A stretch of DNA of 64,000 nt from NCBI GenBank assembly GCA_963422265.1, contig OY729416.1:277681-341680 (forward strand), written 5' to 3'. Source of the DNA: Thermodesulfobacteriota bacterium (GTDB lineage: Bacteria > Desulfobacterota_D > UBA1144 > Nemesobacterales > UBA2774). Below are positions 8,101 through 43,200 of this stretch, piece after piece; positions within the stretch are counted from its first letter, which is position 1, and each line of letters starts with the position of its first letter. Under the pieces are notes generated by a model. That model searched no databases, was not told the origin of the DNA, and saw nothing but the letters and a program-made list of their open reading frames with translations. The position numbers and the translations under genes are program-made.

Positions 8101-8578
8101 AATTGTGTTACACCTCGCTTGCAATTGAATTTAGAAGTTTTAATTATGCCACAGGGAAGATTTTTTTCTATTTTGTGCTAATATATAATAGCTGTCCAAG
8201 AGTATTGGTTTCTCCAGACCTTAAAGTCTTATAAGAGGATCATTTTAATGGTTGTTGGCGCTGCGGCAGGGACCTTCCCGTTCGGGTGGATAAGGGGTTT
8301 TAGGGAGGACAATTGGCAAATTATCTGGGATCCTAGCAGTAAAGCAGTTTTTGCAAAAGCTGCTGTCTCAAAAGAGGTTGTTCCATTGGGCGAGTGCTCG
8401 ACTTGGCAAGAGGCAAAGGTTTTTGCCGATTCTGCCATAGATGATATTAACGTATTAATAAAAGCTATTTAATCTCCTTGTTGTAGCTTTGAAATCTGTC
8501 GCGGCTTGCCTTTGAGTCTTATGCTTCTCTTTGTAGTTCAATTGTAAAATTTCTATATCAAGTTAGCTTTATCTGCTC

Positions 8579-9511: not shown

Positions 9512-9519
9512 AGACGTAA

Positions 9520-10410
9520 ATGGTTTCCAGACAGAGAAGACTTTTAACGTTTCCCGCAGAGGATGGATTCTCTATAAACGGTCTGCTGGTTTGCGGAGAA
9601 TTTGAGAAGGCAAGAGATTTATACGACGCTCCAATAGTGCTTCTTATACATGGAGTGCTTGGGCACTTTCTTGCAAGGGGAACCCCCAGGCTGCTGCCCA
9701 ACGCGCTTGTAGAGAGGGGTTTCAACTCGCTATCAATAAATACAAGAATGGCGTTTACGGGTCAGATTTTCGGTGGTGGCATACTAGACGAAGCGGTAAT
9801 GGACGTAGATGCGGCGGTTAAAGAGCTGATTAAAGAGGGATTTAATAAAATCATAATTCTGGGTTGGAGCCTGGGTGCCAATCTCTCGATTTATTACTCC
9901 GTTGATAGGATTCACCCTAACGTCAAGGGCTTTATACTAGAAGGGTGCTCATATTCCCTTCCTGAATCAAATAGGAAGAGACTTGAAAAATGGGACAGCA
10001 TTCCCTCTTACGATCATGTTTACGATGTAGCGAAAAAAGTTCTTCATCCCGATCCTCGCGATCCTAAGAATGATAGAATATTCATAGTCTATAGGGCTTG
10101 GGGACCTACATTTGAGCCTTCTGACGCTGAGCTCTTTACTTATAGGACTTGGTGGTTTATGAGGGGTCCCGAAGCTCATAACGCTAAGACGAACGAAATT
10201 ATTAAAGGGGTGAAAGCACCTGTTCTCTTTATACACGGCGAGGAAGATTACATTGTTGGTGCTGAAGAGCCTAGGGGACTAATCTCAATCTTAAATGAGT
10301 CGGGGAATGATAACGTGGATATTAGATTCATACCAGAGGCAAGACACGACTGTATGGAAAATCCGGACTTTACAGTGGATGTTCTGGTTGATTGGCTTTC
10401 CCAGTTTTAA
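9520..10410 (+). CDS. Alpha/beta hydrolase, tandem paralog of the preceding gene (GWSLG)
   Basis: Same architecture as the upstream gene: HGVLGHF, GWSLGAN, TYRTWW conserved in both. Confidence 0.75.
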   Translation: MVSRQRRLLTFPAEDGFSINGLLVCGEFEKARDLYDAPIVLLIHGVLGHFLARGTPRLLPNALVERGFNSLSINTRMAFTGQIFGGGILDEAVMDVDAAVKELIKEGFNKIIILGWSLGANLSIYYSVDRIHPNVKGFILEGCSYSLPESNRKRLEKWDSIPSYDHVYDVAKKVLHPDPRDPKNDRIFIVYRAWGPTFEPSDAELFTYRTWWFMRGPEAHNAKTNEIIKGVKAPVLFIHGEEDYIVGAEEPRGLISILNESGNDNVDIRFIPEARHDCMENPDFTVDVLVDWLSQF

Positions 10411-24619: not shown

Positions 24620-25153
24620 CTAATCCTCGCGTTTTTCAAGTTCTTCATCTATCTTTCTTAGATAGTCTTTATTTTCAACCGATCTTAGGGAAACATCCTT
24701 TTTAGTGGGCTGTTGAGATTTACGTAGGAATAATCCTATTCCTATGCCTCCTAATGCTATAGCAACAATGGGTAACAACCACAGTGCCCAGTTTATTCCT
24801 TTAACGGGTGGTGCTCCTAATATGGATTCACCATAGCGATCAGTGAAGTAGGATATAATCTCCTGCTCAGATTTACCCTCCCTAAGTTGTTTTTTAATTA
24901 TATCTCTCATATCGTTAGCCAAGTTTGAATTGGACTCAGCAACGCTCTGCCCCTGACAAACCGGGCACATAAGCTGATGAGAGATCTGTTTAACCTGATC
25001 GTCTATACCATTTTGCTGACTCCTAACTATGTCTCTGCCCCCGAGCGGGGAAGGGCTTTGCGTTATTGATAGTGAGGAGTGTGGCAAGAAAATAAAAAAG
25101 AGTACGAGTATTACAGGTTTTCCAAAGCCGTATATTAGGGAGGGGCTTATCAT
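24620..25153 (-). CDS. ccmH: Cytochrome c-type biogenesis protein CcmH/NrfF family
   Basis: LMCPVCQGQSVAESNSNLANDMR heme-handling motif; signal peptide; C-terminal TM segment. Confidence 0.75.
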   Translation of the reverse strand: MISPSLIYGFGKPVILVLFFIFLPHSSLSITQSPSPLGGRDIVRSQQNGIDDQVKQISHQLMCPVCQGQSVAESNSNLANDMRDIIKKQLREGKSEQEIISYFTDRYGESILGAPPVKGINWALWLLPIVAIALGGIGIGLFLRKSQQPTKKDVSLRSVENKDYLRKIDEELEKRED

Positions 25154-25172
25154 CCGTCTTAATGTCCTATCT

Positions 25173-25742
25173 TTATGAACTGTTTTTTGAACTAATCGCC
25201 CTTAGGAGATAATAATCTATTATTTCTTCCGTAAGCTGGCCAGTGAATTTACCCGTTATAAGACCGGATGAATCTATGAAATAGGTTTCGGGGATTCCAC
25301 CTAACCCATAATTAACCTGAATTTCTTTTTCGGGATCAAAGCCGTGCTCGTAGCTTCCTCCGTATTTGTCGAGATAAGATAGAGCGCTAGAGTCGTCATC
25401 CCAGACGTTGACACCGATAAATACCACGTCTTTGTCTTTGTATTTTTTCCATGATCTTTCAAGTGCTGGCGCCTCTTGCCTACAAGGCTTGCACCATGAT
25501 GCCCAGAAGTTTAGGATCACGGTCTTTCCCTTAAGCTCTGATAGGGAAACGTTCTCTCCGCTCTCAGCCAGTGAACCTCCAGAACTGTAAAGCGTTAGCG
25601 TAAAATCGGGCGCTTCTTTGCCTGTCAGTGGGGAAGTCTTTATAATAACCCTGTCGCCGAATATTGCGTAACCTAATATACTTAGGAATAGCAATATAAT
25701 CGTAAGCGCCGCAAGTTTGGATACTGTCTTGAATACGTTCAT
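25173..25742 (-). CDS. Thiol:disulfide oxidoreductase, TlpA/ResA/CcmG-like thioredoxin
   Basis: NFWASWCKPCRQEAP (WCxxC); N-terminal membrane anchor. Adjacent to ccmH. Confidence 0.8.
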   Translation of the reverse strand: MNVFKTVSKLAALTIILLFLSILGYAIFGDRVIIKTSPLTGKEAPDFTLTLYSSGGSLAESGENVSLSELKGKTVILNFWASWCKPCRQEAPALERSWKKYKDKDVVFIGVNVWDDDSSALSYLDKYGGSYEHGFDPEKEIQVNYGLGGIPETYFIDSSGLITGKFTGQLTEEIIDYYLLRAISSKNSS

Positions 25743-26220
25743 ATCGTCCCGCTAGTATTGTTTTCAGTAGAACATTATAACTAAGGCTGATGCTATTTTC
25801 ATGTCAGCAAGTGAGGAATTATAGCCAAAGGCTACTCTTACAGAAAGGGTTATTCTCGTAAAATTTAAAATAGAGGCATATAGAGGACTGTAACACAATA
25901 TAGCACCGTTTTTCTTACTTTGAGGATATTTTCAGTGAAAACGCGTTACTCTTAAACAACTGCTTGTGTAAGAAGTAGGATTTTCCTTTGGTTAAGATGA
26001 CAAAAGAGGAATCTAGTTTTTTGTTCTTTTATACATATTTGATTTTTATGGGAGATGTGTTGAATTTAGGGTGGAAGGATGGGGTATGATTTGCTCACTT
26101 TAGTGTGGTAAAACGATGAAAATGATAATGATATGGTGGTGGACCCTTAATGAATGTCAGTCCTTTTGACAAAGGCTTAGGAAGTTATTAAAGTAAAAGG
26201 TATTATGATTATAAAAGTTA

Positions 26221-26242
26221 CCCCCCCCCCCCCCCCCCCCCC
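26221..26242. repeat. Homopolymeric tract C22, 28 nt upstream of the TTG start of the giant adhesin gene
   Basis: 22 consecutive C read directly. A possible TTGACA-17-TAAAGT promoter at 26166-26194 would put the tract in the 5' leader. Confidence 0.9.
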
Positions 26243-26269
26243 GAAATTCCTGTCCGGCAGGACAACGCC

Positions 26270-28495
26270 TTGATACCTCGTCAACACCTGCGGCGCCTCG
26301 CCGCCACCCTCGGCCTGATCTTCTTTATCATCTGTGTCCTGCCGGGCACTGCACAGGCCGCCAAAGGCTTCACATTTTCCAAACACACGCTGACTCTGGC
26401 AGAACCTGGAGGACTCGGAGGACTGTCGAGCACAGACACCTACACCGTGAAACTGAGGGAACAACCGAGCGGGAACGTGACCGTAGCAATTAGGAGCGCA
26501 GATAGTACTCTAGTTACTGTGTCACTGGCCTCCATGACCTTTACCACCAGCAACTGGGACCAACCGCAGGAGGTAACCGTCACCGGTGTGGATGACCAAA
26601 TAGATTATGGCGATCAACAGTCCATTGTCATCCTGCATAGTCCGTCCGGTAGTGGCTACAGTTCCCAGCAGAACACTACTATAGCAGTGCGATATAACGA
26701 CAACGACACCGCCGGTATCACCATCACCGAGACCGGTGGCAGCACCGTCACCACCGAAGCCGGCGGCACCGACACCTTCACGGTCGTGCTGGACACCGAG
26801 CCGTTAGAGGATGTCAGCATCGCCGTATCCAGTTCCGACCCCAGTGAAGGTACGGTTGACAAGAGCAGCTTACGTATTCACCTTCGACAACTGGAATACC
26901 CCGCAGACCGTCACCGTCACCGGTCAGGATGACAACCTGGCCGACGGGGATCAATCCTATAACATCGTACTGGACAAGGTCGTCAGTTTAGATCCTCCCT
27001 ACGGCGGCGATACCCCAGCGAACGCCATAGACCCACCGGACGTGTCGGTGACCAACACCGATGATGACCCCGGCGTCACCTTATCCAAGAGAAGTGTCAC
27101 CGTCACCGAAGCCAGTGGCCGGGCGCACCACCACCTACACCGTAGTGCTCAACACCCGGCCGAGTAGTAGCGTCACCGTCACCCCCACCAGCAGCGATAC
27201 CAGCGTGGCCAGAGTCTCCCCGGGACCCCTGACGTTTACTTCATCCGACTGGAATACCCCACAGAGGGTCACCGTCACCGGTATCGATGACAGCACCGTT
27301 GCGGATAGAAGCACCACCATCACCCATGCAGCCTCTGGCGGCGGCTACAACGCAGTGAGCATCGCCGACGTGTCGGTAAAGCTGACCGATGACGACACCA
27401 GCTTCACATTTTCCACATCCAGTCTGTCTCTGGCAGAAACTGCTGGACTCGGAGGACTGTCGAACACAGGCAGCTACACCGTGAAACTGAATGGAGCACC
27501 AAATGCGGACGTGACCGTAACAGTCCGTAATAATTTCCCTGATGAAATCACCGTCTCCCCGGCCTCCCTGACCTTTACCACCAGCGACTGGAATACCGCC
27601 GCAAGGGTCACCGTCACCGTCTTGGATAACCAGGTCGATAATGGCGATCAACGTACCATTCTTGTCTGGCATTTGCCGTCCGGTGGTGGCTACGGTTCTC
27701 AGCAGAACACTAATATAACAGTGCTATATAACGACAACGACACCGCCGGCGTCACCGTCACCGAGACCGGTGGCAGCACTGCCACCACCGAAGCCGGCGG
27801 CACCGACACCTTCACGGTCGTGCTGAACACCAAGCCGTTAGAGGGTGTCAGAATCGCCGTATCCAGTTCCGACATCAGTGAAGGTACGGTTGACAAGAGC
27901 AGCCTGGTCTTCACCGATTCCAACTGGGATACGGTACAGACCGTCACCGTCACCGGTCAGGATGACAGCCTGGTTGACGGGGATCGAGCCTATAACATCG
28001 TACTGGCCAAGGTCGTCAGCACTGATACCAACTACCACGGCATTGACCCAGCGGACGTATCGGTGACCAACACCGATGATGACGCCGGCGTCACCGTTAT
28101 CCAAGATGCAGTGTCACCGTCACCGAAGCCAGTGGCAACAGTAATACCACCACCTACACTGTCGTACTGGACGCCCAACCCTCGGGCGAAGTCACCGTCA
28201 CCCTCACCAGCGGCGATACCAGCGTGGCCAGAGTCTCCCCGGCCTCCCTGACCTTTACCACCAGCGACTGGAATACCGCACAGCAAGTCACCGTCACCGG
28301 TATCGATGACAGCACCGTTGCGGATAGAAGCACCACCATCACCCATGCAGCCTCTGGCGGCAGCTACAACGCAGTGGTCATTCCCAGTGTCGTGTCACCC
28401 TGACCGATGACGACACCAGCTTCACATTTTCCACATCCAGTCTGTCTCTGGCAGAAGGTGGACTCGGAGGACGGCCGAACACAGGCAGCTACACC
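26270..28495 (+). pseudogene. 5' portion of the giant adhesin gene (signal peptide plus Ig/Calx-like beta-sandwich domains), split across three overlapping ORFs by frameshifts
   Basis: ORFs 26270..26932, 26811..27167 and 27061..28251 encode contiguous homologous domains in different frames. Signal peptide MIPRQHLRRLAATLGLIFFIICVLPGTAQA. 27400-28410 is near-identical to the in-frame copy at 28410-29420 apart from indels such as the one at ~28105. Confidence 0.55.
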
Positions 28496-31400
28496 GTGAA
28501 ACTGAATGGAGCACCAAATGCGGACGTGACCGTAACAGTCCGTAATAATTTCCCTGATGAAATCACCGTCTCCCCGGCCTCCCTGACCTTTACCACCAGC
28601 GACTGGAATACCCCGCAGAGGGTCACCGTCACCGTCTTGGATAACCAGGTCGATAATGGCGATCAACGTACCATTCTTGTCTGGCATTTGCCGACCGGTG
28701 GTGGCTACGGTTCTCAGCAGAACACTAATATAACAGTGCAATATAACGACAACGACACCGCCGGCGTCACCGTCACCGAGACCGGTGACAGCACTGCCAC
28801 CACCGAAGCCGGCGGCACCGACACCTTCACGGTCGTGCTGAACACCGAGCCGTTAGAGGGTGTCAGAATCGCCGTATCCAGTTCCGACATCAGTGAAGGT
28901 ACGGTTGACAAGAGCAGCCTGACCTTCACCGCAGCCAACTGGGATACGGTACAGACCGTCACCGTCACCGGTCAGGATGACAGCCTGGTTGACGGGGATC
29001 GAGCCTATAACATCGTACTGGCCAAGGTCGTCAGCACTGATACCAACTACCACGGCATTGACCCAGCGGACGTATCGGTGACCAACACCGATGATGACGC
29101 CGGCGTTACGTTATCCAAGAGCAGTGTCACCGTCACCGAAGCCAGTGGCAACAGTAATACCAACACCTACACTGTAGTACTGGACGCCCAACCCTCGGGC
29201 ACCGTCACCGTCACCCTCACCAGCGGCGATACCAGCGTGGCCAGAGTCTCCCCGGCCTCCCTGACCTTTACCACCAGCGACTGGAATACCGCACAGCAAG
29301 TCACCGTCACTGGGGTGGACGACAGCACCGATGAGGACCGCAGCACCACCATCACCCATACAATCAGTGGTGGGGGATACGGCTCAGTGAGCATAGCCGA
29401 CGTCGCCGTCACCCTGACCGATGACGATACCGCCCGCGTCACGCCGCCGAGCAAGCCCACCGGACTCGAGGCAGTGGGGGGCGACAGTCAGGTGACGTTG
29501 ACCTGGAATAATCCGAATAACGCCGCCATCACCGGGTATCAGATCAGGCAGCGGAGTTATGTCAACGGGGCATGGACTAAATTTCCTAAATTTTCTAACA
29601 TAATACCGGGCAGTGATGCCAGCACCACTAGCCACGTGGTGAGTGGTCTGACCAACGGCGTGAGGTATAGTTTCCAAATCCGTGAGATGGTGGGCAAAAA
29701 GGGAGGGAAACCGTCTGAGGCCAAAGCGACACCGGCGGCCCCGCCACCGCCGAAACCGAGCAAGCCCACCGGCCTCAGGACAGTAGCAGGGAACAATCAG
29801 GCGACGTTGATCTGGAATAATCCGAATAACGCCGCCATCACCAAGTATCAGTATAAGCAGTGGAATTCATCGTCTACCGAGAGCGGCGCGAAGTGGGCTG
29901 ACATACCGGGCAGTGATGCGAACACCACCAGCTACGTGGTGAGTGGTCTGACCAACACCTCTGTTATCTATAGATTCCGCATCCGTGCGGTGGCAGGCCC
30001 CTCTGTCGGGCTTCAGTCCAGCTCTGCCGGTGCGATCATTGCGGTACCGCCTGCTGCGCCTGTCGTGACGGCGACGCCGGGCGACGCTCAGGTGAGGTTA
30101 AGTTGGTCGGGGAGCATAGGCTATTATATCACCAGGTATCAGATCAAGCAGTGGACGGGCAGTAGCGAGCCGGCCAATGGCTGGAAGGACATTCCCGGGA
30201 GTCGATCGAGCACCACCAGCCACGTGGTTAGGGGTCTGACCAGCGGCGTGAGTTACAGTTTCCGCATCCGTGCGGTGGCAACATGTAGTTTTAATTCTGG
30301 GAGATTCATAGCTTCTGATTGCAGCGTTGCGGGGACGCCGTCCACTCCCGTCAGTCCGACGCTTGTGCCGGGCAAGCCTGTCGTGGCGCCAATGCCGGGC
30401 GACGCTCAGGTGACGTTGAGTTGGAGTAATCCGAATGATGTTGCCATCACCAAGTATCAGATCAAGCAGTGGACTGGCAGTAGCGAGAGTGGGAGCTGGA
30501 CTGACATATCGGGGAGTGGATCGAGCACCACCAGCCATGTGGTGAGTGGCCTGACCAGCGGCGTGAGGTATAGTTTCCGTATTCGTGCGGTGGCAGGTAC
30601 CAATGTTGCAGGGACGCCGTCCGATCCCGTCAGGGCAGTACTCCTGGACAAGCCTGTCGTCAGTGCCAGTGCGGGCGACACTCTGGTGACGTTGAGTTGG
30701 AGTGATCCGAATGACGATTCCATCACCAGGTATCAGATCAAGCAGTGGACTGGCAGTAGCGAGAGAGGGCGTTGGACTGACATATCGGGGAGTGGATCGA
30801 GCACCACCAGCCTCGTGGTGGGGCGCCTGACCAACGGCGTGAGGTATAGTTTCCGTATCCGTGCAATGGTGGGTCTTTTCCCGGGGGTGGAGTCAGCTTC
30901 CGTCAGTTCGACGCCTGTGCCGGGCAAGCCTGCCGTGACGGCGACGCCGGGCACCGCTCAGGTGACGTTAAGCTGGAGTAATCCGAATGATGCTTCCATC
31001 GCCAGGTATCAGATCAAGCAGTGGACTGGCAGTAGCGAGAGTGGGAGTTGGACTGACATATCGGGGAGTGGGGAGGACACCACCAGCCACGTGGTGAGGG
31101 GTCTGACCAACGGCGTTGAGTATAGTTTCCGTATCCGTGCGGTGACAGGTACCAACGCTTCAGGGACGCCGTCCGATCCCGTCAGTGAGACGCCAGCGGT
31201 ACAGCCGGACAAGCCTGCTGTTACAGCGGCGCCGGCGGGCGACAGTCTGGTGAGGTTGAGTTGGAGTAATCCGAATGACGCTTCCATCACCGGGTATCAG
31301 ATCAAGCGGTGGACTGGCAGTAGCGAGAGTGGGAGTTGGACTGACATATCGGGGAGTGGGAAGGACACGATCACATACACGGTACCGGGTCTGACCAACG

Positions 31401-34400
31401 GCGTTGAGTATAGTTTCCGTATCCGTGCGATGGCAGGTCGTGTTCCAGGGATGGAGTCGGATGTCGCCAGCGCGACGCCTGTGGCAGACAAGCCTATCGT
31501 TACGGCGACGCCGGGCAACGCTCTGGTGACGTTAAGCTGGAGTAATCCGAATGACGCTTCTATCACCGGGTATCAGATCAAGCAGTGGACTGGCAGTAGC
31601 GAGAGTGGGAGTTGGACTGACATATCGGGGAGTGGGGAGGACACCATCAGCCACGTGGTGAGTGGTCTGACCAACGGCGCCAGGTATGGTTTCCGTATCC
31701 GTGCGATGGTAGGCGCTGTTACAAGGACGCCGTCCGATCCCGTCAGTGCGACGCCTGTGTCGCCGCCTGTCGGACTCACGGCGACGCCGGGAGACTCTCA
31801 GGTGACGTTGACCTGGAATAATCCGAACAATCCCACCATCACCGGGTATCAGCTCAAAAAGTATCGTTTCACGATTGAGACCGGTTTTAACGAGGGTTCT
31901 TGGACTGACATACCAGGGAGTGGAAAGGACACCACCAGCTACGTGGTAACGAGTCTGACCAACGGCGCCAGGTATGGTTTCGAGATTCGTGCGGTGGTAG
32001 GCAGTGTTACAGGAGAGGAGTCCGAGTTCGTGCCCGTCACCCTGAGCAGCATCTTCACCATTACCGGGACGGTGACCCAGGGAGAGACACTGACCGCGGA
32101 TACCAGCACGATCTCCGACCCCGACGGCCCGAAGAGTCTGACGTTCACCTACCAATGGAAGCGCGGCGGGACTGCCATAGGCGGTGCCACCGGCCGCACC
32201 TACGTTCTGACGCAGGCCGACGTCGGGAAGGCTATCACCGTCATCGTGAGCTGGACCAATGCTCGTGGGACATTAAAGTCTCTCACCTCGACTGCGACTG
32301 CGAACGTGGCGAACGTGAATGAATCACCAACCGGGGCCGTTACCATCACCGGCACCGCCACCAGGGGACAGACGTTGACTGCGGATACCAGCACGATCGT
32401 CGACCCGGACGGCCCTGCCCGTCTGACGTTCACCTATCAATGGAATCGCGGCGGGACTGCCATAGGCGGTGCCACCGGCCGCACCTACGTTCTGACGCCG
32501 GCCGACGTCGGGAAGGCCATCAGCGTCACCGTGAGCTGGACCGATGCTGGCAGCACCGCGGAGTCATTCATCTCTGCTGCTACCACGAGTGTAACAAACA
32601 CCAACCAATCACCGACCGGGGCCGTCGCCATCACCGGCACCGCCACCCAGAAGCAGACACTGACCGCGGTTACCAGCACGATCGTCGACCCGGACGGCCC
32701 CAGCAGTCTAACGTTCAGCTACCAGTGGAACCGCGATGGGTCTGCCATCAGCAGTGCCACCGGCAGCACCTACGTGCTGACGCAAGCCGACGTCGGGGCC
32801 AAGATCACCGTCACCGTGAGCTGGACCGATGCTGGCAGCACCGCGGAGTCGTTCAACTCTGCTGCGACGGCGAAGGTGGCGAACGTGAATGACCTGCCGA
32901 CCGGGGCCGTCACCATCACCGGCACCGTCACCCAGAAGCAGACGTTGACCGCGGTGACCAGCACGATCTCCGACCCGGACGGCCCGAGTAATTTGGTTTT
33001 TAGCTATCAATGGAAGCGAGATGGGAATAACATCAGCAGCGCCACCGGCCGCACCTACGTTCTGACGCAGGCTGACGTCGGGAAGGCCATCATCGTCACC
33101 GTGAGCTGGACCGATGCTTATGGGGCATCAGAGTCTCTCACCTCTGCTGCGACAGCGAAGGTGGTGAACGTGAACGACCGGCCGACCGGGGCCGTCACCA
33201 TCACCGGCACCCCCATCCAGGGACAGATACTGACCGCGGACACCTCCGGCATTTCCGACCCGGACGTCCCTGACACTGACAGTCTGACCTTTACCTACCA
33301 GTGGACGCGTGGCCCGGATACTGTCAGCCGCACCAGCACTTACACCCTGACGCAGGCTGACGTCGGGGAGATCATCACCGTAGTCGTGGCTTATCAAGAT
33401 GGTGGGCGTAGGCAGCTTTTCCTTGCTAGAACTCCAAAGGTAGCGAACCTAAACGACGCACCGACCGGGGCCGTTACCATCACCGGCACCCCCACCCAGG
33501 GAGAGACACTGACCGCGGTGACCAGCACGATCTCCGACCCGGATGGCCCGAGTGATTTGGTGTTCAGCTACCAGTGGAAGCGCGATAGGATTGCCATCAG
33601 CAGCGCCACCGGCAGCACCTACACCCTGACGCAAGCCGACGTCGGGAAGGCCATCAGCGTCATTGTGAGCTGGACCGATGCTGGCAGCACCGCGGAGACC
33701 CTCACCTCTGTTGCTACCGCGAGTGTAACCAACATAAACGACTCACCGACCGGCAGCGTCACCATCACCGGCACCGTGACCCAGGGCCAGACACTGACCG
33801 CAGACACCTCCGGCATCTCCGACCCCGACGGCCCCGCCAGTCTGACCTTCAGCTACCAATGGAAACGCGATGGGTCTGACATCAGCAGTGCCACCAGTAG
33901 AACCTACATTCTGACGCAAGCCGACGTCGGGAAGGCCATCAGCGTCACCGTCAGCTGGACCGATGCCGGCAGCATCGTGGAGACCCTCACCTCTGCTGCG
34001 ACAGCGAACGTAGCGAACCTAAACGACTCGCCGACCGGTAGCGTCACCATCAGCGGCACGGTGACCCAGGGCCAGACCCTGACCGCAGTGACCAGCACGA
34101 TCGTCGACCCGGACGGCCCGGCCAGTCTGACCTTCAGCTACCAATGGAAACGCGATAGCACTGACATCAGCAGTGCCACCAGTAGAACCTACATTCTGAC
34201 GCAAGCCGACGTCGGGAAGGCCATCACCGTCATCGTGAGTTGGACCGATGCCGGCAGCATCGTGGAGACCCTTACCTCGACTGCGACAGCGAAGGTGGCG
34301 AACATGAATGACCCGCCGACCGGGGCTGTCACCATCAGCGGCACCGTGACCCAGGGCCAGACCCTGACCGCGGTGACCAGCACGATCGTCGACCCCGACG

Positions 34401-37400
34401 GCCCCAGCAGTCTAACCTTCACCTACCAATGGAACCGTGGCGGGAATCCCATCAGCAGCGCCACCGGCAGCACCTACACCCTGACACAAGCCGACGTCGG
34501 TAAGGCCATCAGCGTCATTGTGAGCTGGACCGATGCTGGCAGCACCGCGGAGACCCTCACCTCGGCGGCGACAGCGAACGTAACCAACGCGAACGATCCG
34601 CCGACCGGGGCTGTCACCATCAGCGGCACCGTGACCCAGGGCCAGACACTGACCGCAGACACCTCCGGCATCTCCGACCCCGACGGCCCCAGCAATCTGA
34701 CGTTCACCTACCAATGGAAGCGCGATGGGTCTGACATCAGCAGTGCCACCAGTAGAACCTACATTCTGACGCAAGCCGACGTCGGGAAGGCTATCACCGT
34801 CATCGTGAGTTGGACCGATGCCGGCAGCATCGTGGAGACCCTCACCTCTGCTGCGACAGCGAACGTAGCGAACCTAAACGACTCGCCGACCGGTAGCGTC
34901 ACCATCAGCGGCACGGTGACCCAGGGCCAGACCCTGACCGCAGTGACCAGCACGATCGTCGACCCGGACGGCCCGGCCAGTCTGACCTTCAGCTACCAAT
35001 GGAAACGCGATAGCACTGACATCAGCAGTGCCACCAGTAGAACCTACATTCTGACGCAAGCCGACGTCGGGAAGGCTATCACCGTCATCGTGAGTTGGAC
35101 CGATGCCGGCAGCATCGTGGAGACCCTTACCTCGACTGCGACAGCGAAGGTGGCGAACATGAATGACCCGCCGACCGGGGCTGTCACCATCAGCGGCACC
35201 GTGACCCAGGGCCAGACCCTGACCGCGGTGACCAGCACGATCGTCGACCCCGACGGCCCCAGCAGTCTAACCTTCACCTACCAATGGAACCGTGGCGGGA
35301 ATCCCATCAGCAGCGCCACCGGCAGCACCTACACCCTGACACAAGCCGACGTCGGTAAGGCCATCAGCGTCACCGTGAGTTGGACCGATGCCGGCAGCAT
35401 CGTGGAGACCCTCACCTCGGCGGCGACAGCGAACGTAACCAACGCGAACGATCCGCCGACCGGGGCGGTCACCATCACCGGCACCGTGACCCAGGGCCAG
35501 ACACTGACCGCGGATACCAGCACGATAGTTGACCCGGACGGCCCGGCCAGTCTGACCTTCAGCTACCAATGGAAACGCGATAGCACTGACATCAGCAGTG
35601 CCACCAGTAGAACCTACATTCTGACGCAAGCCGACGTCGGGAAGGCTATCACCGTCATCGTGAGTTGGACCGATGCCGGCAGCATCGTGGAGACCCTCAC
35701 CTCTGCTGCGACAGCGAACGTAGCGAACCTAAACGACTCGCCGACCGGTAGCGTCACCATCAGCGGCACGGTGACCCAGGGCCAGACCCTGACCGCAGTG
35801 ACCAGCACGATCGTCGACCCGGACGGCCCGGCCAGTCTGACCTTCAGCTACCAATGGAAACGCGATAGCACTGACATCAGCAGTGCCACCAGTAGAACCT
35901 ACATTCTGACGCAAGCCGACGTCGGGAAGGCTATCACCGTCATCGTGAGTTGGACCGATGCCGGCAGCATCGTGGAGACCCTTACCTCGACTGCGACAGC
36001 GAAGGTGGCGAACATGAATGACCCGCCGACCGGGGCTGTCACCATCAGCGGCACCGTGACCCAGGGCCAGACCCTGACCGCGGTGACCAGCACGATCGTC
36101 GACCCCGACGGCCCCAGCAGTCTAACCTTCACCTACCAATGGAACCGTGGCGGGAATCCCATCAGCAGCGCCACCGGCAGCACCTACACCCTGACACAAG
36201 CCGACGTCGGTAAGGCCATCAGCGTCACCGTGAGTTGGACCGATGCCGGCAGCATCGTGGAGACCCTCACCTCGGCGGCGACAGCGAACGTAACCAACGC
36301 GAACGATCCGCCGACCGGGGCGGTCACCATCACCGGCACCGTGACCCAGGGCCAGACACTGACCGCGGATACCAGCACGATAGTTGACCCGGACGGCCCG
36401 GCCAGTCTGACCTTCAGCTACCAATGGAAACGCGATAGCACTGACATCAGCAGTGCCACCAGTAGAACCTACATTCTGACGCAAGCCGACGTCGGGAAGG
36501 CTATCACCGTCATCGTGAGTTGGACCGATGCCGGCAGCATCGTGGAGACCCTTACCTCGACTGCGACAGCGAAGGTGGCGAACATGAATGACCCGCCGAC
36601 CGGGGCTGTCACCATCAGCGGCACCGTGACCCAGGGCCAGACCCTGACCGCAGACACCTCCGGCATCTCCGACCCCGACGGCCCCAGCAATCTGACGTTC
36701 ACCTACCAATGGAACCGTGGCGGGAATCCCATCAGCAGCGCCACCGGCAGCACCTACACCCTGACACAAGCCGACGTCGGTAAGGCCATCAGCGTCACCG
36801 TGAGTTGGACCGATGCCGGCAGCATCGTGGAGACCCTCACCTCGGCGGCGACAGCGAACGTAACCAACGCGAACGATCCGCCGACCGGGGCGGTCACCAT
36901 CACCGGCACCGTGACCCAGGGCCAGACACTGACCGCGGATACCAGCACGATAGTTGACCCGGACGGCCCGGCCAGTCTGACCTTCAGCTACCAATGGAAA
37001 CGCGATAGCACTGACATCAGCAGTGCCACCAGTAGAACCTACATTCTGACGCAAGCCGACGTCGGGGCGGCCATCAGCGTCGCCGTCAGCTGGACCGATG
37101 CCGGCAGCATCGTGGAGACCCTCACCTCTGATGCGACAGCGAACGTAGCGAACCTAAACGACTCGCCGACCGGTAGCGTCACCATCAGCGGCACGGTGAC
37201 CCAGGGCCAGACCCTGACCGCAGTGACCAGCACGATCGTCGACCCGGACGGCCCGGCCAGTCTGACCTTCAGCTACCAATGGAAACGCGATAGCACTGAC
37301 ATCAGCAGTGCCACCAGTAGAACCTACATTCTGACGCAAGCCGACGTCGGGGCGGCCATCAGCGTCGCCGTCAGCTGGACCGATGCCGGCAGCATCGTGG

Positions 37401-39310
37401 AGACCCTTACCTCGACTGCGACAGCGAAGGTGGCGAACATGAATGACCCGCCGACCGGGGCTGTCACCATCAGCGGCACCGTGACCCAGGGCCAGACCCT
37501 GACCGCGGTGACCAGCACGATCGTCGACCCCGACGGCCCCAGCAGTCTAACCTTCACCTACCAATGGAACCGTGGCGGGAATCCCATCAGCAGCGCCACC
37601 GGCAGCACCTACACCCTGACACAAGCCGACGTCGGTAAGGCCATCAGCGTCACCGTGAGTTGGACCGATGCCGGCAGCATCGTGGAGACCCTCACCTCGG
37701 CGGCGACAGCGAACGTAACCAACGCGAACGATCCGCCGACCGGGGCGGTCACCATCACCGGCACCGTGACCCAGGGCCAGACACTGACCGCAGACACCTC
37801 CGGCATCTCCGACCCCGACGGCCCCAGCAATCTGACGTTCACCTACCAATGGAAGCGCGATGGGTCTGACATCAGCAGTGCCACCAGTAGAACCTACGTT
37901 CTGACGCAGGCCGACGTCGGGAAGGCCATCAGCGTCATTGTGAGCTGGACCGATGCTGGCAGCACCGCGGAGACCCTCACCTCTGCTGCGACAGCGAACG
38001 TAACCAACGCGAACGATCCGCCGACCGGGGCTGTCACCATCACCGGCACCGTGACCCAGGGCCAGACACTGACCGCGGATACCAGCACGATAGTTGACCC
38101 CGACGGCCCCGCCAATCTGACGTTCACCTACCAATGGAAGCGCGATGGGTCTGACATCAGCAGTGCCACCAGTAGAACCTACGTTCTGACGCAGGCCGAC
38201 GTCGGGAAGGCCATCAGCGTCATTGTGAGCTGGACCGATGCTGGCAGCACCGTGGAGACCCTCACCTCTGCTGCGACAGCGAACGTAACCAACGCGAACG
38301 ATCCGCCGACCGGCAGCGTCACCATCAGCGGCACCGTGACCCAGGGCCAGACCCTGACCGCGGATACCAGCACGATAGTTGACCCCGACGGCCCCGCCAG
38401 TCTGACGTTCACCTACCAATGGAAGCGCGATGGGTCTGACATCAGCAGTGCCACCAGTAGAACCTACATTCTGACGCAAGCCGACGTCGGGAAGGCTATC
38501 ACCGTCATCGTGAGCTGGACCGATGCCGGCAGCATCGTGGAGACCCTTACCTCGGCGGCGACAGCGAAGGTGGTGAACGTGAACGACCCGCCGACCGGCA
38601 GCGTCACCATCACCGGCACCGTGACCCAGGGCCAGACACTGACCGCGGATACCAGCACGATAGTTGACCCCGACGGCCCCGCCAGTCTGACGTTCACCTA
38701 CCAATGGAAGCGCGATGGGTCTGACATCAGCAGTGCCACCAGTAGAACCTACGTTCTGACGCAGGCCGACGTCGGGAAGGCCATCAGCGTCATTGTGAGC
38801 TGGACCGATGCTGGCAGCACCGTGGAGACCCTCACCTCTGCTGCGACAGCGAACGTAACCAACGCGAACGATCCGCCGACCGGCAGCGTCACCATCAGCG
38901 GCACCGTGACCCAGGGCCAGACCCTGACCGCGGATACCAGCACGATAGTTGACCCCGACGGCCCCGCCAATCTGACGTTCACCTACCAATGGAAGCGCGA
39001 TGGGTCTGACATCAGCAGTGCCACCAGTAGAACCTACGTTCTGACGCAGGCCGACGTCGGGAAGGCCATCAGCGTCATTGTGAGCTGGACCGATGCTGGC
39101 AGCACCGTGGAGACCCTCACCTCTGCTGCGACAGCGAACGTAACCAACGCGAACGATCCGCCGACCGGCAGCGTCACCATCAGCGGCACCGTGACCCAGG
39201 GCCAGACCCTGACCGCGGATACCAGCACGATAGTTGACCCCGACGGCCCCGCCAGTCTGACGACCTACCAATGGAAGCGCGATGGGTCTGACATCAGCTG
39301 CCACCAGTAG
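28496..39310 (+). CDS. Giant repetitive surface adhesin-like protein, main 3604-aa ORF: beta-sandwich domains, 11 fibronectin type III domains, then about 25 tandem 95-aa repeats
   Basis: Continuous 10.8-kb ORF. FN3 consensus P..L.A..GD.QVTLSW..PND..ITGYQIKQW......W.DI.GS...TTS..V.GLTNGV.YSFRIRAV. 95-aa unit PTGAVTITGTVTQGQTLTADTS.I.DPDGP..LTF.YQWKR.G..ISSAT..TY.LTQADVGK.I.V.VSWTD.GS..E.L.S.AT..V.N.ND. Confidence 0.8.
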   Translation: MKLNGAPNADVTVTVRNNFPDEITVSPASLTFTTSDWNTPQRVTVTVLDNQVDNGDQRTILVWHLPTGGGYGSQQNTNITVQYNDNDTAGVTVTETGDSTATTEAGGTDTFTVVLNTEPLEGVRIAVSSSDISEGTVDKSSLTFTAANWDTVQTVTVTGQDDSLVDGDRAYNIVLAKVVSTDTNYHGIDPADVSVTNTDDDAGVTLSKSSVTVTEASGNSNTNTYTVVLDAQPSGTVTVTLTSGDTSVARVSPASLTFTTSDWNTAQQVTVTGVDDSTDEDRSTTITHTISGGGYGSVSIADVAVTLTDDDTARVTPPSKPTGLEAVGGDSQVTLTWNNPNNAAITGYQIRQRSYVNGAWTKFPKFSNIIPGSDASTTSHVVSGLTNGVRYSFQIREMVGKKGGKPSEAKATPAAPPPPKPSKPTGLRTVAGNNQATLIWNNPNNAAITKYQYKQWNSSSTESGAKWADIPGSDANTTSYVVSGLTNTSVIYRFRIRAVAGPSVGLQSSSAGAIIAVPPAAPVVTATPGDAQVRLSWSGSIGYYITRYQIKQWTGSSEPANGWKDIPGSRSSTTSHVVRGLTSGVSYSFRIRAVATCSFNSGRFIASDCSVAGTPSTPVSPTLVPGKPVVAPMPGDAQVTLSWSNPNDVAITKYQIKQWTGSSESGSWTDISGSGSSTTSHVVSGLTSGVRYSFRIRAVAGTNVAGTPSDPVRAVLLDKPVVSASAGDTLVTLSWSDPNDDSITRYQIKQWTGSSERGRWTDISGSGSSTTSLVVGRLTNGVRYSFRIRAMVGLFPGVESASVSSTPVPGKPAVTATPGTAQVTLSWSNPNDASIARYQIKQWTGSSESGSWTDISGSGEDTTSHVVRGLTNGVEYSFRIRAVTGTNASGTPSDPVSETPAVQPDKPAVTAAPAGDSLVRLSWSNPNDASITGYQIKRWTGSSESGSWTDISGSGKDTITYTVPGLTNGVEYSFRIRAMAGRVPGMESDVASATPVADKPIVTATPGNALVTLSWSNPNDASITGYQIKQWTGSSESGSWTDISGSGEDTISHVVSGLTNGARYGFRIRAMVGAVTRTPSDPVSATPVSPPVGLTATPGDSQVTLTWNNPNNPTITGYQLKKYRFTIETGFNEGSWTDIPGSGKDTTSYVVTSLTNGARYGFEIRAVVGSVTGEESEFVPVTLSSIFTITGTVTQGETLTADTSTISDPDGPKSLTFTYQWKRGGTAIGGATGRTYVLTQADVGKAITVIVSWTNARGTLKSLTSTATANVANVNESPTGAVTITGTATRGQTLTADTSTIVDPDGPARLTFTYQWNRGGTAIGGATGRTYVLTPADVGKAISVTVSWTDAGSTAESFISAATTSVTNTNQSPTGAVAITGTATQKQTLTAVTSTIVDPDGPSSLTFSYQWNRDGSAISSATGSTYVLTQADVGAKITVTVSWTDAGSTAESFNSAATAKVANVNDLPTGAVTITGTVTQKQTLTAVTSTISDPDGPSNLVFSYQWKRDGNNISSATGRTYVLTQADVGKAIIVTVSWTDAYGASESLTSAATAKVVNVNDRPTGAVTITGTPIQGQILTADTSGISDPDVPDTDSLTFTYQWTRGPDTVSRTSTYTLTQADVGEIITVVVAYQDGGRRQLFLARTPKVANLNDAPTGAVTITGTPTQGETLTAVTSTISDPDGPSDLVFSYQWKRDRIAISSATGSTYTLTQADVGKAISVIVSWTDAGSTAETLTSVATASVTNINDSPTGSVTITGTVTQGQTLTADTSGISDPDGPASLTFSYQWKRDGSDISSATSRTYILTQADVGKAISVTVSWTDAGSIVETLTSAATANVANLNDSPTGSVTISGTVTQGQTLTAVTSTIVDPDGPASLTFSYQWKRDSTDISSATSRTYILTQADVGKAITVIVSWTDAGSIVETLTSTATAKVANMNDPPTGAVTISGTVTQGQTLTAVTSTIVDPDGPSSLTFTYQWNRGGNPISSATGSTYTLTQADVGKAISVIVSWTDAGSTAETLTSAATANVTNANDPPTGAVTISGTVTQGQTLTADTSGISDPDGPSNLTFTYQWKRDGSDISSATSRTYILTQADVGKAITVIVSWTDAGSIVETLTSAATANVANLNDSPTGSVTISGTVTQGQTLTAVTSTIVDPDGPASLTFSYQWKRDSTDISSATSRTYILTQADVGKAITVIVSWTDAGSIVETLTSTATAKVANMNDPPTGAVTISGTVTQGQTLTAVTSTIVDPDGPSSLTFTYQWNRGGNPISSATGSTYTLTQADVGKAISVTVSWTDAGSIVETLTSAATANVTNANDPPTGAVTITGTVTQGQTLTADTSTIVDPDGPASLTFSYQWKRDSTDISSATSRTYILTQADVGKAITVIVSWTDAGSIVETLTSAATANVANLNDSPTGSVTISGTVTQGQTLTAVTSTIVDPDGPASLTFSYQWKRDSTDISSATSRTYILTQADVGKAITVIVSWTDAGSIVETLTSTATAKVANMNDPPTGAVTISGTVTQGQTLTAVTSTIVDPDGPSSLTFTYQWNRGGNPISSATGSTYTLTQADVGKAISVTVSWTDAGSIVETLTSAATANVTNANDPPTGAVTITGTVTQGQTLTADTSTIVDPDGPASLTFSYQWKRDSTDISSATSRTYILTQADVGKAITVIVSWTDAGSIVETLTSTATAKVANMNDPPTGAVTISGTVTQGQTLTADTSGISDPDGPSNLTFTYQWNRGGNPISSATGSTYTLTQADVGKAISVTVSWTDAGSIVETLTSAATANVTNANDPPTGAVTITGTVTQGQTLTADTSTIVDPDGPASLTFSYQWKRDSTDISSATSRTYILTQADVGAAISVAVSWTDAGSIVETLTSDATANVANLNDSPTGSVTISGTVTQGQTLTAVTSTIVDPDGPASLTFSYQWKRDSTDISSATSRTYILTQADVGAAISVAVSWTDAGSIVETLTSTATAKVANMNDPPTGAVTISGTVTQGQTLTAVTSTIVDPDGPSSLTFTYQWNRGGNPISSATGSTYTLTQADVGKAISVTVSWTDAGSIVETLTSAATANVTNANDPPTGAVTITGTVTQGQTLTADTSGISDPDGPSNLTFTYQWKRDGSDISSATSRTYVLTQADVGKAISVIVSWTDAGSTAETLTSAATANVTNANDPPTGAVTITGTVTQGQTLTADTSTIVDPDGPANLTFTYQWKRDGSDISSATSRTYVLTQADVGKAISVIVSWTDAGSTVETLTSAATANVTNANDPPTGSVTISGTVTQGQTLTADTSTIVDPDGPASLTFTYQWKRDGSDISSATSRTYILTQADVGKAITVIVSWTDAGSIVETLTSAATAKVVNVNDPPTGSVTITGTVTQGQTLTADTSTIVDPDGPASLTFTYQWKRDGSDISSATSRTYVLTQADVGKAISVIVSWTDAGSTVETLTSAATANVTNANDPPTGSVTISGTVTQGQTLTADTSTIVDPDGPANLTFTYQWKRDGSDISSATSRTYVLTQADVGKAISVIVSWTDAGSTVETLTSAATANVTNANDPPTGSVTISGTVTQGQTLTADTSTIVDPDGPASLTTYQWKRDGSDISCHQ
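29440..32040 (+). repeat. Array of 11 FN3-domain-coding repeats, about 270-290 bp each, moderately diverged
   Basis: Periodic protein motif in the 28496..39310 ORF. Confidence 0.75.
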
Positions 39311-40140
39311 AACCTACATTCTGACGCAAGCCGACGTCGGGAAGGCTATCACCGTCATCGTGAGCCGCATCGTGGAGACCCTTACCTCGGCGGCGACCGA
39401 AGGTGGTGAACGGAACGACCCGCGACCGGCAGCGTCACCATCACCGGGTGACCCAGGGCCAGACACTGACGGATACCAGCACGATAGTTGACCCCGACGG
39501 CCCCGCCAGTCTGACGTTCACCTACCAATGGAAGCGCGATGGGTCTGACATCAGCAGTGCCACCAGTAGAACCTACGTTCTGACGCAGGCCGACGTCGGG
39601 AAGGCCATCAGCGTCATTGTGAGCTGGACCGATGCTGGCAGCACCGCGGAGACCCTCACCTCTGCTGCGACAGCGAACGTAACCAACGCGAACGATCCGC
39701 CGACCGGGGCTGTCACCATCACCGGCACCGTGACCCAGCAATCTGACGTTCAGCTACCAATGGAAGCGCGATGGGTCTGACATCAGCAGTGCCACCAGTA
39801 GAACCTACGTTCTGACGCAGGCCGACGTCGGGAAGGCCATCAGCGTCATTGTGAGCTGGACCGATGACCGCGGAGACCCTCACCTCTGATGCGACAGCGA
39901 ACGTAACCAACGCGATCCGCCGACCGGGGCGGTCACCATCACCGGCACCGTGACCCAGGGCCAGACACTGACACCTCCGGCATCTCCGACCCCGACGGCC
40001 CCAGCAATCTGACGTTCAGCTACCAATGGAAGCGCGATGGGTCTGACATCAGCAGTGCCACCAGTAGAACCTACGTTCTGACGCAGGCCGACGTCGGGAA
40101 GGCCATCACCGTCACCGTCAGCTGGACCGACAGCGGCGGT
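32040..40140 (+). repeat. Tandem 285-bp (95-aa) repeat array A, about 28 units including 855-bp higher-order repeats that are near-identical at the DNA level
   Basis: Antisense ORFs recur at exact 285- and 855-bp spacing (e.g. 33904, 34759, 35614). Long stretches (33961-34250 versus 34816-35105) are identical. Confidence 0.85.
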
Positions 40141-40254
40141 ACCGCGGAGACCCTCACCTCTGCGGCTACTTCGGTCGCCGGCGTCACGTTATCCACGAGA
40201 GCGGTCACCGTCACCGAAGCCAGTGGCAGCAGTAATACCAACACCTACACCGTA
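39230..40254 (+). pseudogene. Degenerate or collapsed segment of repeat array A: several short ORFs in different frames. Relative to neighbouring copies it differs by many 1-17 nt deletions and almost no substitutions.
   Basis: E.g. cagacactgacacctccggc versus canonical cagacactgaccgcagacacctccggc; tgagccgcatcgtggagaccc versus tgagctggaccgatgccggcagcatcgtggagaccc. Confidence 0.5.
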
Positions 40255-43200
40255 GTGCTCGACACCCAACCCTCGGGCAACGTCACCGTCACGCCCACCA
40301 GCGGCGATAGCGACGTGGCGACCGTATCCCCGGTCTCCCTGACGTTTACCACGAGCAACTGGAGTACGGCACAGATCGTCACCGTCACCGGTGTGGACGA
40401 CAGCAGCGATGGTGATAGAAGTACCACCATCACCCATGCAGCCTCTGGTGGTGGCTACGACTCAGTGGTCATTGCCAGCGTCAGTGTAACGCTGACCGAT
40501 GACGACACCGCCGGTGTCACCGTGTCCGAGAGCGGTGTCACGGTAACCGAAGCCAGTGGCAGCAGTAATACCAACACCTACACCGTAGTACTCAACACCC
40601 GGCCGAGTGGCAACGTCACCGTCACGCCGACCAGCGGCGATACCAATGTGGCGACCGTATCTGGGGCCCTGACCTTTACCACCAGCAACTGGAGTACGGC
40701 ACAGTCCATCACCGTCACCGGTGTGGACGACAGCAGCGATGGTGATAGAAGCACCACCATCACCCATGCAGCCTCTGGCGGCGGCTACAACGCAGTGGTC
40801 ATCTCCGACGTAGCGGTAACGCTGACCGATGACGACACCGCCGGTGTCACCGTGTCCGAGAGCAGCGTCACGGTAACCGAAGCCAGTGGCAGCAGTAATA
40901 CCAACACCTACACCGTAAAACTTAACACCCGGCCGAGTGGCACCGTCACCGTCACGCCCACCAGCGGCGATAGCGACGTGGCGACCGTATCCCCGGTCTC
41001 CCTGACGTTTACCACGAGCAACTGGGGTACGGCACAGTCCATCACCGTCACCGGTGTGGACGACAGCAGCGATGGGGATAGAAGCACCACCATCACCCAT
41101 GCAGCCTCTGGCGGCGGCTACAACGCAGTGGTCATCTCCGACGTAGCGGTAACGCTGACCGATGACGATAACAACTCGCCGACGGGTTCGGTAACCATTA
41201 CTGGGGCGGCGACGCAGGGGCAGAGGCTTACGGCAGATACCAGCACGATCGTTGATCCAGACGGTCCGAGTAATCTGACGTTCAGCTATCAATGGAAGCG
41301 GGGCGGGACTGACATCAGCGGGGCGACCAGTAGCACCTACGTTCTAACACAGGCGGACGTCGGTTCTATGATCACAGTAGTAGTGAGTTGGACGGACAGC
41401 GGTAGTACAGTGGAATCTCTGACCTCTGCTGCTACAGCAAGTGTAGCGAACTTAAACGACTTGCCGACTGGTGCAGTAACCATTACGGGGACGGTGACGC
41501 AGGGGCAGACACTGACCGCGGATACCGGCACGATTGTTGACCCAGACGGTCCGAGTAATCTGACGTTCAGCTATCAATGGAAGCGGGGTGGGACTGATAT
41601 CAACGGGGCGACCAGTAGCACCTACGTTCTGACACAGGCGGACGTAGGTTCTGTGATCACAGTAGTAGTGAGTTGGACGGACGCTGGTGGGGCATCGGAA
41701 TCCCTCACCTCTGCTGCTACAGCAAGTGTGGCAAACACCAACAACTTGCCGACTGGTGCAGTAACCATTACTGGGACGGTGACGCAGGGGCAGACGCTTA
41801 CGGCGGATACCGGCACGATCGTTGATCCAGACGGTCCGAGTAGTCTGACGTTCAGCTATCAGTGGAAGCGAGGTGGGACTGATATCAGCGGGGCGACCAG
41901 TAGCACCTACGTTCTGACACAGGCGGACGTCGGTTCTGTGATCACAGTAGTAGTGAGTTGGACGGACAGCGGTAGTACAGTGGAGACTCTTACCTCTGCT
42001 GCTACAGCAAGTGTAGCGAACGTAAACGACTTGCCGACTGGTGCGGTAACCATCACCGGGACGGCGACCCAGGGCCAGACACTGACCGCGGATACCAGCA
42101 CGATTGTTGACCCAGACGGTCCGAGTAATCTGACGTTCAGCTATCAGTGGAAGCGAGGTGGGACTGACATCAGCGGGGCGACCAGTAGCACCTACGTTCT
42201 GACACAGGCGGACGTCGGTTCTGTGATCACAGTAGTAGTGAGTTGGACGGACAGCGGTAGTACAGTGGAGACTCTTACCTCTGCTGCTACAGCAAGTGTA
42301 GCGAACGTAAACGACTCGCCGACTGGTGCAGTCACCATCACCGGCACGGCGACCCAGGGCCAGACACTGACCGCGGATACCAGCACGATCGTTGATCCAG
42401 ACGGCCCGAGTAATCTGACGTTCAGCTATCAATGGAAGCGAGGTGGGACTGACATCAGCGGCGGCGCCAGTAGCACCTACGTTCTGACACAGGCGGACGT
42501 CGGGGCGGCAATCACCGTCACTGTGAGCTGGACTGACGCTGGTGGGGCATCGGAATCTCTTACCTCTGCTGCTACAGCAAGTGTAGCGAACGTAAACGAC
42601 TTGCCGACTGGTGCGGTAACCATTACGGGGACGGCAACCCAGGGGCAGACACTGACCGCGGATACCAGCACGATTGTTGACCCAGACGGTCCGAGTAATC
42701 TGACGTTCAGCTATCAATGGAAGCGGGGTGGGACTGACATCAGCGGGGCGACCAGTAGCACCTACATTCTGACACAGGCGGACGTCGGTTCTGTGATCAC
42801 AGTAGTAGTGAGTTGGACGGACGCTGGTGGGACATCGGAATCCCTCACCTCTGCTGCTACAGCAAGTGTAGCGAACGTAAACGACTTGCCGACTGGTGCG
42901 GTAACCATTACGGGGACGGCAACCCAGGGGCAGACGCTTACAGCGGATACCGGCACGATCGTTGATCCAGACGGTCCGAGCAGTCTGACGTTCAGCTATC
43001 AATGGAAGCGAGGCGGGACTGATATCAACGGGGCGACCAGTAGCACCTACATTATGACACAGGCGGACGTCGGTTCTGTGATCACAGTAGTAGTGAGTTG
43101 GACGGACAGCGGTAGTACAGTGGAATCTCTGACCTCTGCTGCTACAGCAAGTGTAGCGAACGTAAACGACTCGCCGACTGGTGCGGTAACCATTACGGGG

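Follow-up and report, generated by a model that had tools for sequence, protein, structure and literature searches.

What purpose, if any, does a run of 22 consecutive cytosines serve when it lies just ahead of the start codon of a giant surface-protein gene, and could its length switch that gene? The run discussed here, C22, lies in a stretch of 64,000 nucleotides (the window, to whose first letter all positions refer), upstream of a TTG start at 26270. Our analysis leads us to favour, although only tentatively, the answer that C22 is a slipped-strand contingency switch that belongs to the leader of a giant gene of autotransporter type and would act on translation. Three propositions that we infer underlie this answer, namely that an ATG at 26205 is used, that the length of the tract varies in vivo and that expression follows that length. 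Several other explanations of the tract have to be weighed against it, and they are considered below together with the evidence that bears on each.

The run comprises exactly 22 C, bounded by A at 26220 and G at 26243, and no other homopolymer in the 64-kb window reaches 10 bases, the runners-up being C9 at 45637, T9 at 141 and G8 at 60071. From the base composition of the window, about 3e-10 runs of C22 or longer would be expected, and a set of 84 other bacterial loci (1.42 Mb) contained one C/G run of at least 10 bases, a C10; C22 is therefore not explained by chance. The tract is far above the length from which G/C runs slip (about 8-9 or more), and 27 nt separate it from the TTG. A preliminary description of this DNA had reported such a run just upstream of a TTG start and likened it to the phase-variation tracts of surface proteins. 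Both statements are borne out, the first by the exact run 27 nt before the TTG and the second by a length that exceeds the slip length at a gene that encodes a signal peptide, repeats of the FN3/Ig type and a beta-barrel like that of autotransporters.

How far the tract can be trusted depends on the assembly. The DsbE protein encoded next to the giant gene (P0275) sits on a 1,783,595-nt NCBI/ENA contig, and because this 1.78-Mb contig resolves a 7.7-kb near-identical tandem array, it should derive from a long-read assembly; the source appears to be a long-read metagenome-assembled genome. Long-read consensus is weakest at long homopolymers, and the length of 22 is therefore uncertain by a base or more. 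It is, however, highly unlikely that the tract is a sequencing or assembly artefact, whether spurious, the scar of a chimeric join or in reality much shorter than 22. Such an origin would agree with the weakness of long-read consensus at homopolymers, with a jump in base composition at the tract, with the clustering of frame changes in the same gene and with the fact that the short-read (Logan) contig of a close strain stops before the tract; against it, both sides of the tract make sense, with an AT-rich intergenic region and a promoter-like site upstream and a Shine-Dalgarno sequence, TTG start and signal peptide downstream. Moreover, the far end of the gene returns to host-like composition within one open frame, with a hairpin and housekeeping genes beyond it, the adjacent housekeeping genes are intact, and the k-mers of final assemblies are typically longer than 22 nt, so that spanning reads would have been needed. 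A chimeric contig in particular was considered and judged unlikely, as the far composition change falls inside one continuous open frame and both flanks carry one host signature.

Other copies of the locus were sought in genome, metagenome and protein collections, and none of those searched contained an orthologous adhesin locus. The only near-identical contig found was that of the close strain (L081, from ERR11641160), which is 98.9% identical to window positions 24957-26135 and ends at 26135, 86 nt short of the tract. Exact protein look-ups for a second copy with DsbE, MiaA, the 220-aa N-terminal ORF and the SDR returned no match, a scan of genome contigs with PNPase returned only relatives at 57% identity or less, and a scan of JGI metagenomes for the exact flanks of the tract, with the C length left variable, gave 0 matches. 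The N-terminal 199 aa found four distant internal-domain matches in metagenomes, none spanning the signal peptide, and a protein search with the N-terminus gave only fragments resembling internal repeats, at no more than 53% identity. Homologues of the beta-domain reach at most 44% identity and come from genomes of 65-67% G+C; no homopolymer was present in their upstream regions that were inspected. The closest named relatives of DsbE, 57-60% identical, are labelled Thermodesulfobacteriota, Deltaproteobacteria or Candidatus Dadabacteria, and the lineage is poorly sampled. As a separate observation, the database relatives of the adhesin domains are all below 1,000 aa, even those from megabase contigs, and one member of the P0241 cluster has 1,537 aa; either the searchable set is limited in length or assemblies often break up giant genes, and this restricts what these searches can show.

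The gene behind the tract, whose parts are listed in Table 1, can fairly be labelled a giant surface or secreted adhesin-like autotransporter. By inspection, its signal peptide has a basic n-region, a hydrophobic core and an A-x-A motif. The gene's 5' end contains a roughly 1.05-kb unit in three copies, and the 285-bp units farther downstream encode 95-residue Ig-like domains of the AIR9 A9 type, with copies matching at 84-90%. The C-terminal 410 residues score 25.0 bits against PF03797, for which the cut-off is 26; this beta-domain is also 44% identical over its length to P0241, which itself carries PF03797 and is one of the 8 proteins with that domain among the 34 that match the beta-domain. 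An AlphaFold2 model of the beta-domain (pLDDT 73) is an all-beta barrel that gives target-normalised TM-scores of 0.49-0.64 with the beta-domains of BrkA, Hbp, EspP and NalP, and that also resembles larger barrels such as TonB-dependent receptors and LptD. The hairpin that follows the gene has no T tail, and its C9 is the second-longest C run in the window, so that the giant gene is flanked by C runs at either end (C22 and C9).

Table 1. Positions of the C22 tract, its leader elements and the parts of the downstream gene within the window.
Feature	Position	Strand	Remarks
Sigma-70-like promoter candidate, TTGACA-17-TAAAGT	26166-26194	+	10 of 12 consensus matches; implied transcription start near 26201
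Upstream ORF (uORF) at C22	26205-26273	+	ATG, 22 codons (MIIKVTPPPPPPPKFLSGRTTP), TGA stop; from the C17-C28 simulation and the sequence; putative translation
C22 homopolymer	26221-26242	+	Seven CCC proline codons in the uORF frame; point of the G+C jump
5' arm of leader stem	26251-26264	+	UGUCCGGCAGGACA; inverted repeat; holds Shine-Dalgarno AGGA (26259-26262), 7 nt before TTG
TTG start and 30-residue Sec-type signal peptide	26270-26359	+	MIPRQHLRRLAATLGLIFFIICVLPGTAQA; cleavage before AK; translation, judged by eye
Giant autotransporter-like repeat-protein gene	26270-45618	+	Would have about 6,450 codons after repair; in the assembly divided among frames
3' arm of leader stem	26335-26348	+	UGUCCUGCCGGGCA; inside signal-peptide codons 22-27
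First frame-change cluster	26868-28400	+	Positions relative to the intact paralogous copy at 28400-29430
FN3 tandem array	30332-31857	+	276-bp unit, 5.5 copies; within the giant gene
Tandem array, Ig-like	32055-39738	+	285-bp unit, 27 copies; about 7.7 kb
Second frame-change cluster	39294-39970	+	At least 4 frame changes and small deletions; end of the 285-bp tandem array
Further array, Ig-like	41170-43421	+	285-bp unit, 7.9 copies
C-terminal outer-membrane beta-barrel (autotransporter-like translocator)	44380-45618	+	Pfam near-match, homology and model; host-like codon usage
C9, 14 nt, G6 hairpin, probable terminator stem	45637-45665		19 nt after the stop codon

The giant adhesin had been taken for a single ORF, and this view has to be abandoned for the sequence as assembled, in which the ORF from the TTG closes after 220 codons and the gene is split among frames. 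The frame changes number at least eight, have no relation to the tract and fall into two clusters. The first consists of a +1 change near 26872, a -2 change near 27120, 1-base insertions at 28094 and 28107 and a 1-base deletion near 28392, so that open stretches follow one another in frames 0, 1, 0 and 2 up to 28400, and a stretch of 3,660 open codons then runs to 39307. After the second cluster, 1,903 codons are open to the stop at 45618, and opposite both long open stretches the remaining frames are rich in stops. As assembled, the signal peptide, passenger and barrel are thus not in one polypeptide. Typical homopolymer consensus errors can be dismissed as the source of the frame changes, none of which sits in a homopolymer; the clusters reflect either local decay or a locally poor long-read consensus. 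It may also be noted that the two clusters border repeat arrays and that 11 kb of intact frame lie between them. N-terminal and C-terminal queries of a collection of 15 billion proteins returned no self-match for the giant gene, and the neighbouring DsbE of the same genome is present in that collection. The simplest reading of the missing protein is that the source record treats the giant gene as a pseudogene, and the combination of at least eight frame changes outside homopolymers with the missing protein record is compatible with a pseudogene. Any switch at C22 would therefore govern either a recently inactivated pseudogene or a gene with imperfectly assembled repeats.

The composition of the locus points to a composite origin. 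From values of 0.34-0.45, G+C rises to 0.58 exactly at the tract and then stays at 0.58-0.64 for 17 kb, and the GC skew shifts at exactly the same point, being mostly negative over the signal peptide and passenger (26243 onwards). The passenger has a GC3 of 0.65-0.76, against 0.44-0.47 in its own beta-domain and 0.41-0.47 in host genes; the giant gene is therefore a mosaic, with a foreign-looking block that starts at the tract, which suggests that a foreign passenger cassette, bounded on its 5' side by the C tract, was fused to a resident translocator. In the beta-domain, over 44200-45600, C is extremely scarce on the coding strand, with a GC skew of +0.4 to +0.74, and the neighbouring plus-strand genes have values of about +0.2 to +0.35, well below it. 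To the left of the locus lie nusA-infB-rbfA-nrnA-truB-rpsO-pnp-miaA, followed by ccmH-dsbE on the opposite strand, and to the right lie an SDR gene and those for ApbC, a methyltransferase and NuoM. An ORF of 399 aa at 48523-49722, 3 kb downstream of the adhesin, matches N6-adenine and TIGR01177-type methyltransferase models weakly and possibly encodes a DNA or RNA methyltransferase. The closest relative that was compared, with a 78% identical PNPase (L082, GCA_975851855.1), has conserved the block from nusA to dsbE and carries next to dsbE (8085-10000) a GAF-GGDEF gene in place of the adhesin; the right-flank genes of the window were sought within 10 kb in this relative and were absent there. 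The adhesin locus thus sits at a break in conserved gene order (window 25743-46000 compared with L082).

These features raise the possibility, which we consider rather unlikely but not negligible, that C22 has no function and is a hypermutable remnant where native DNA meets a G+C-rich passenger gained by horizontal transfer, whose gene is now a decaying pseudogene. The shifts of G+C and GC skew right at the tract, the GC3 of the passenger compared with that of host genes and its own beta-domain, the GGDEF gene of the relative at the adhesin site, and the frame changes outside homopolymers in a gene that lacks a protein record would all be expected of such a remnant, and there is a precedent in meningococcal autA, a phase-variable autotransporter gene that is disrupted in 76% of genomes (PMC5472700). 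On the other hand, frames that stay open for 3,660 and 1,903 codons mean that any decay is recent or that the frame changes are consensus errors at repeat borders, and a well-formed Shine-Dalgarno sequence, a start codon and a signal peptide have all been retained. Long homopolymers, furthermore, shrink unless they are selected or young, which also counts against a functionless remnant.

If the tract does act on the gene, does it do so through transcription? A promoter scan identified TTGACA (26166-26171) and TAAAGT (26189-26194) at a 17-nt spacing, and C22 begins 27 nt past this site. Three such promoter-like sites occur in the 800-nt region, against 1.8 expected in shuffles, and the candidate is for this reason weak evidence. 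The tract falls outside the -35/-10 spacer of this, the only consensus-like promoter, and lies downstream of its -10; since it lies 27 nt past the -10, the classic mechanism based on spacer length is inapplicable to the TTGACA-17-TAAAGT promoter, and in relation to that promoter C22 is no switch of the Neisseria porA/opc or Bordetella fim promoter-spacer type.

A different transcriptional or leader-level effect can be envisaged, in which the tract, located in the 5' untranslated region or upstream of an unrecognised activator-dependent -10, tunes the amount of mRNA by its length as a rheostat, and no uORF is involved. We regard this as unlikely, although the G(n) tract of Moraxella uspA1 and the C-stretches of Bordetella fim function in this manner. 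Tracts of 21-80 nt form the class rated likeliest to overlap promoters (PMC1891110), and the mRNA of uspA1 differs about 21-fold between G10 and G12 (PMC7302503); the predicted promoter of the present locus would place the tract at about +20 to +41 of the transcript. These points are offset by the position of the tract outside the spacer of the only consensus-like promoter, by the poor quality of GAAATT (26243-26248), an example of an unrecognised -10 just downstream of the tract that matches the -10 consensus at 3 of 6 positions and has no -35, and by the predicted folds, in which the tract is unpaired and has no downstream partner.

The leader itself offers elements for control at the level of translation. 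Between the stop at 26189-26191 and the TTG, the frame of the latter contains no other start codon, and the host uses Shine-Dalgarno sequences and TTG starts elsewhere, as in pnp and the gene starting at 57136. The segments 26251-26264 and 26335-26348 are complementary at 13 of 14 positions and are predicted to form a 14-bp stem, which appears in both the minimum-energy and the centroid folds (z = -3.1; 0 of 200 shuffles as stable) and has a duplex energy of -27.6 kcal/mol; the Shine-Dalgarno sequence of the TTG has a predicted unpaired probability of 0.001 or less. With the Shine-Dalgarno sequence locked in the stem, the TTG should be a poor site for de novo initiation. In the same folds C22 is unpaired and does not interact with downstream sequence. 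Pairing of the tract with the G-rich segment 26069-26086 was considered and set aside, being possible but no better than in shuffles (z = +0.29). With E values up to 1 allowed, an Rfam scan of the 527-nt intergenic region gave no match, a scan of the whole window gave one tRNA only, and a scan of the leader for intrinsic terminators predicted none.

Upstream of the tract, the ATG at 26205 is preceded at a 4-nt spacing by AAAGG (26196-26200), a weak candidate Shine-Dalgarno sequence. To call this ATG out of frame with the adhesin at C22, as was done in the preliminary description, is correct yet incomplete, because the ATG opens a 22-codon uORF that ends over the TTG, its TGA (26271-26273) overlapping the start codon (26270-26272) as TTGA. 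The heptapeptide PPPPPPP in this uORF is encoded by the tract. A stop/start overlap such as TTGA is a typical arrangement for coupling of termination and reinitiation. When tract lengths from C17 to C28 were simulated, three frame outcomes were obtained, and the ATG was in frame with the TTG ORF at C17, C20, C23 and C26; the earlier frame arithmetic, which had listed C20, C23 and C26, was correct and is extended by C17. The transcriptional and translational routes that had been proposed side by side are, however, partly in tension: with a transcription start near 26201, the mRNA would begin about 4 nt before the ATG and would lose AAAGG, which makes use of the uORF from the named promoter doubtful.

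The translational switch that we favour would use these elements as follows. With the Shine-Dalgarno sequence of the TTG locked by a stem that includes signal-peptide codons 22-27, efficient initiation at the TTG would need ribosomes that come from the ATG at 26205, and these would translate the tract as poly-proline and open the stem. At tract lengths of 3n+1 (C19, C22, C25), they would stop at the TGA over the TTG and might re-initiate there, so that the adhesin would be translated in a coupled state; at 3n+2 (C20, C23, C26), they would read in frame into the adhesin and yield a fused product with an N-terminal extension; and at 3n (C21, C24), they would pass the start out of frame and continue for about 95 codons, leaving the gene off or low. 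It is a good deal to ask, and in our estimation improbable, that the locus exemplifies an undescribed three-state switch in this full sense, that is, a poly-proline leader tract whose length modulo 3 selects reinitiation, fusion or overrun, possibly with ribosome stalling and Rho added. RNA polymerase may slip on runs longer than the RNA-DNA hybrid, which would blur such three-state logic.

The same leader could also be seen as a physiological sensor, in which a shortage of EF-P or prolyl-tRNA would make ribosomes stall at the seven proline codons of the uORF, the C-rich RNA would load Rho, and the leader would gate the adhesin's transcription or translation. We think this very improbable. In the proline-sensing leaders that are known, the proline codons are few and mixed, and a perfect homopolymer mutates and is hence a poor code for a stable sensor. 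What speaks for a sensor is the PPPPPPP of the uORF together with the uORF stop over the main start, the predicted sequestration of the Shine-Dalgarno sequence, and the fact that uORF-dependent Rho attenuation is established, for example at mgtL/mgtA and tnaC (PMC12360218).

Should the tract vary and control the gene, slippage switching of giant adhesins would extend to a deep-branching, uncultured environmental lineage, away from the host-adapted pathogens that are the classic ground for slippage-based contingency switching; to our knowledge, contingency loci are hardly documented in uncultured, non-pathogenic lineages. If the reading that we favour is true, the locus would also provide a case of a homopolymer that acts via a leader ORF instead of via the main ORF or a promoter spacer. 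The locus carries three cautions as well for the annotation of metagenome-assembled genomes. In long-read assemblies, neither the lengths of long homopolymers nor giant genes rich in repeats are to be trusted at face value, a consensus alone cannot call the state of a switch on or off, and whether the controlled gene is intact or a pseudogene should be checked before a switch is invoked.

By analogy, the C22 locus plausibly resembles the C/G tracts of Bordetella fim and bapC, Neisseria nalP and ausI, and Moraxella uspA1. In Bordetella, the fim3 tract has 13 C/G in B. pertussis and 22 in B. bronchiseptica, and the corresponding lengths are 12 and 20 for fim2 and 14 and 35 for bapC, an autotransporter gene whose tract puts it out of frame in the reference genome; variation of length within cultures was shown for tcfA, bapC and BP3651, and for bapC within single colonies (PMC1891110). 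The likeness to fim2, fim3, fimX, fimN and bapC lies in long C/G runs of comparable lengths beside or inside envelope-protein genes, with the intergenic tracts, as with C22, some tens of nucleotides ahead of the start codon. The fim tracts, however, overlap a functional promoter, whereas C22 lies downstream of the only consensus-like one, and the bapC tract is inside the annotated ORF, whereas C22 precedes the TTG and would be coding only in the hypothetical uORF or N-terminal extension.

In Neisseria meningitidis, nalP and ausI (mspA) contain poly-C in the coding region, and autA and autB carry AAGC repeats just after the start codon (PMC5472700). As may be the case at C22, nalP, ausI, autA and autB are autotransporter genes in which a repeat close to the 5' end slips and thereby switches the reading frame, and autA is, like the giant gene, also broken by stops and indels in most genomes. 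In contrast, the Neisseria repeats lie inside the main ORF and act as simple on/off switches, whereas the length of C22 leaves the TTG ORF unaffected and would act via an upstream ATG with three states; moreover, unlike the Neisseria genes, the gene behind C22 encodes a passenger that is a repeat protein of roughly 6,000 residues in an uncultured, apparently non-pathogenic lineage. In Moraxella catarrhalis, the G(n) tract of uspA1 and the AGAT(n) tract of uspA2 lie upstream of the ORF and give graded expression (PMC7302503). There too the repeat is outside the coding sequence and before the ORF of an autotransporter-class adhesin, but UspA1 and UspA2 are trimeric autotransporters, the G tracts have 8-13 bases and the effect on mRNA has been measured. 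Judging from the leader, a translational route via the uORF and the sequestered Shine-Dalgarno sequence would be at least as likely at C22 as an mRNA effect of the uspA1 kind. Finally, leaders of the tnaC and mgtL type are similar to the leader proposed for C22 in that translation of a short leader ORF decides whether what lies downstream is usable, with proline codons and C-rich RNA being critical, and a study of MgtL proline codons regulating mgtA transcription is among those cited in a review (PMC12360218); the difference is that a physiological signal sets the outcome at tnaC and mgtL, whereas at C22 it would be set by the length of a mutable homopolymer.
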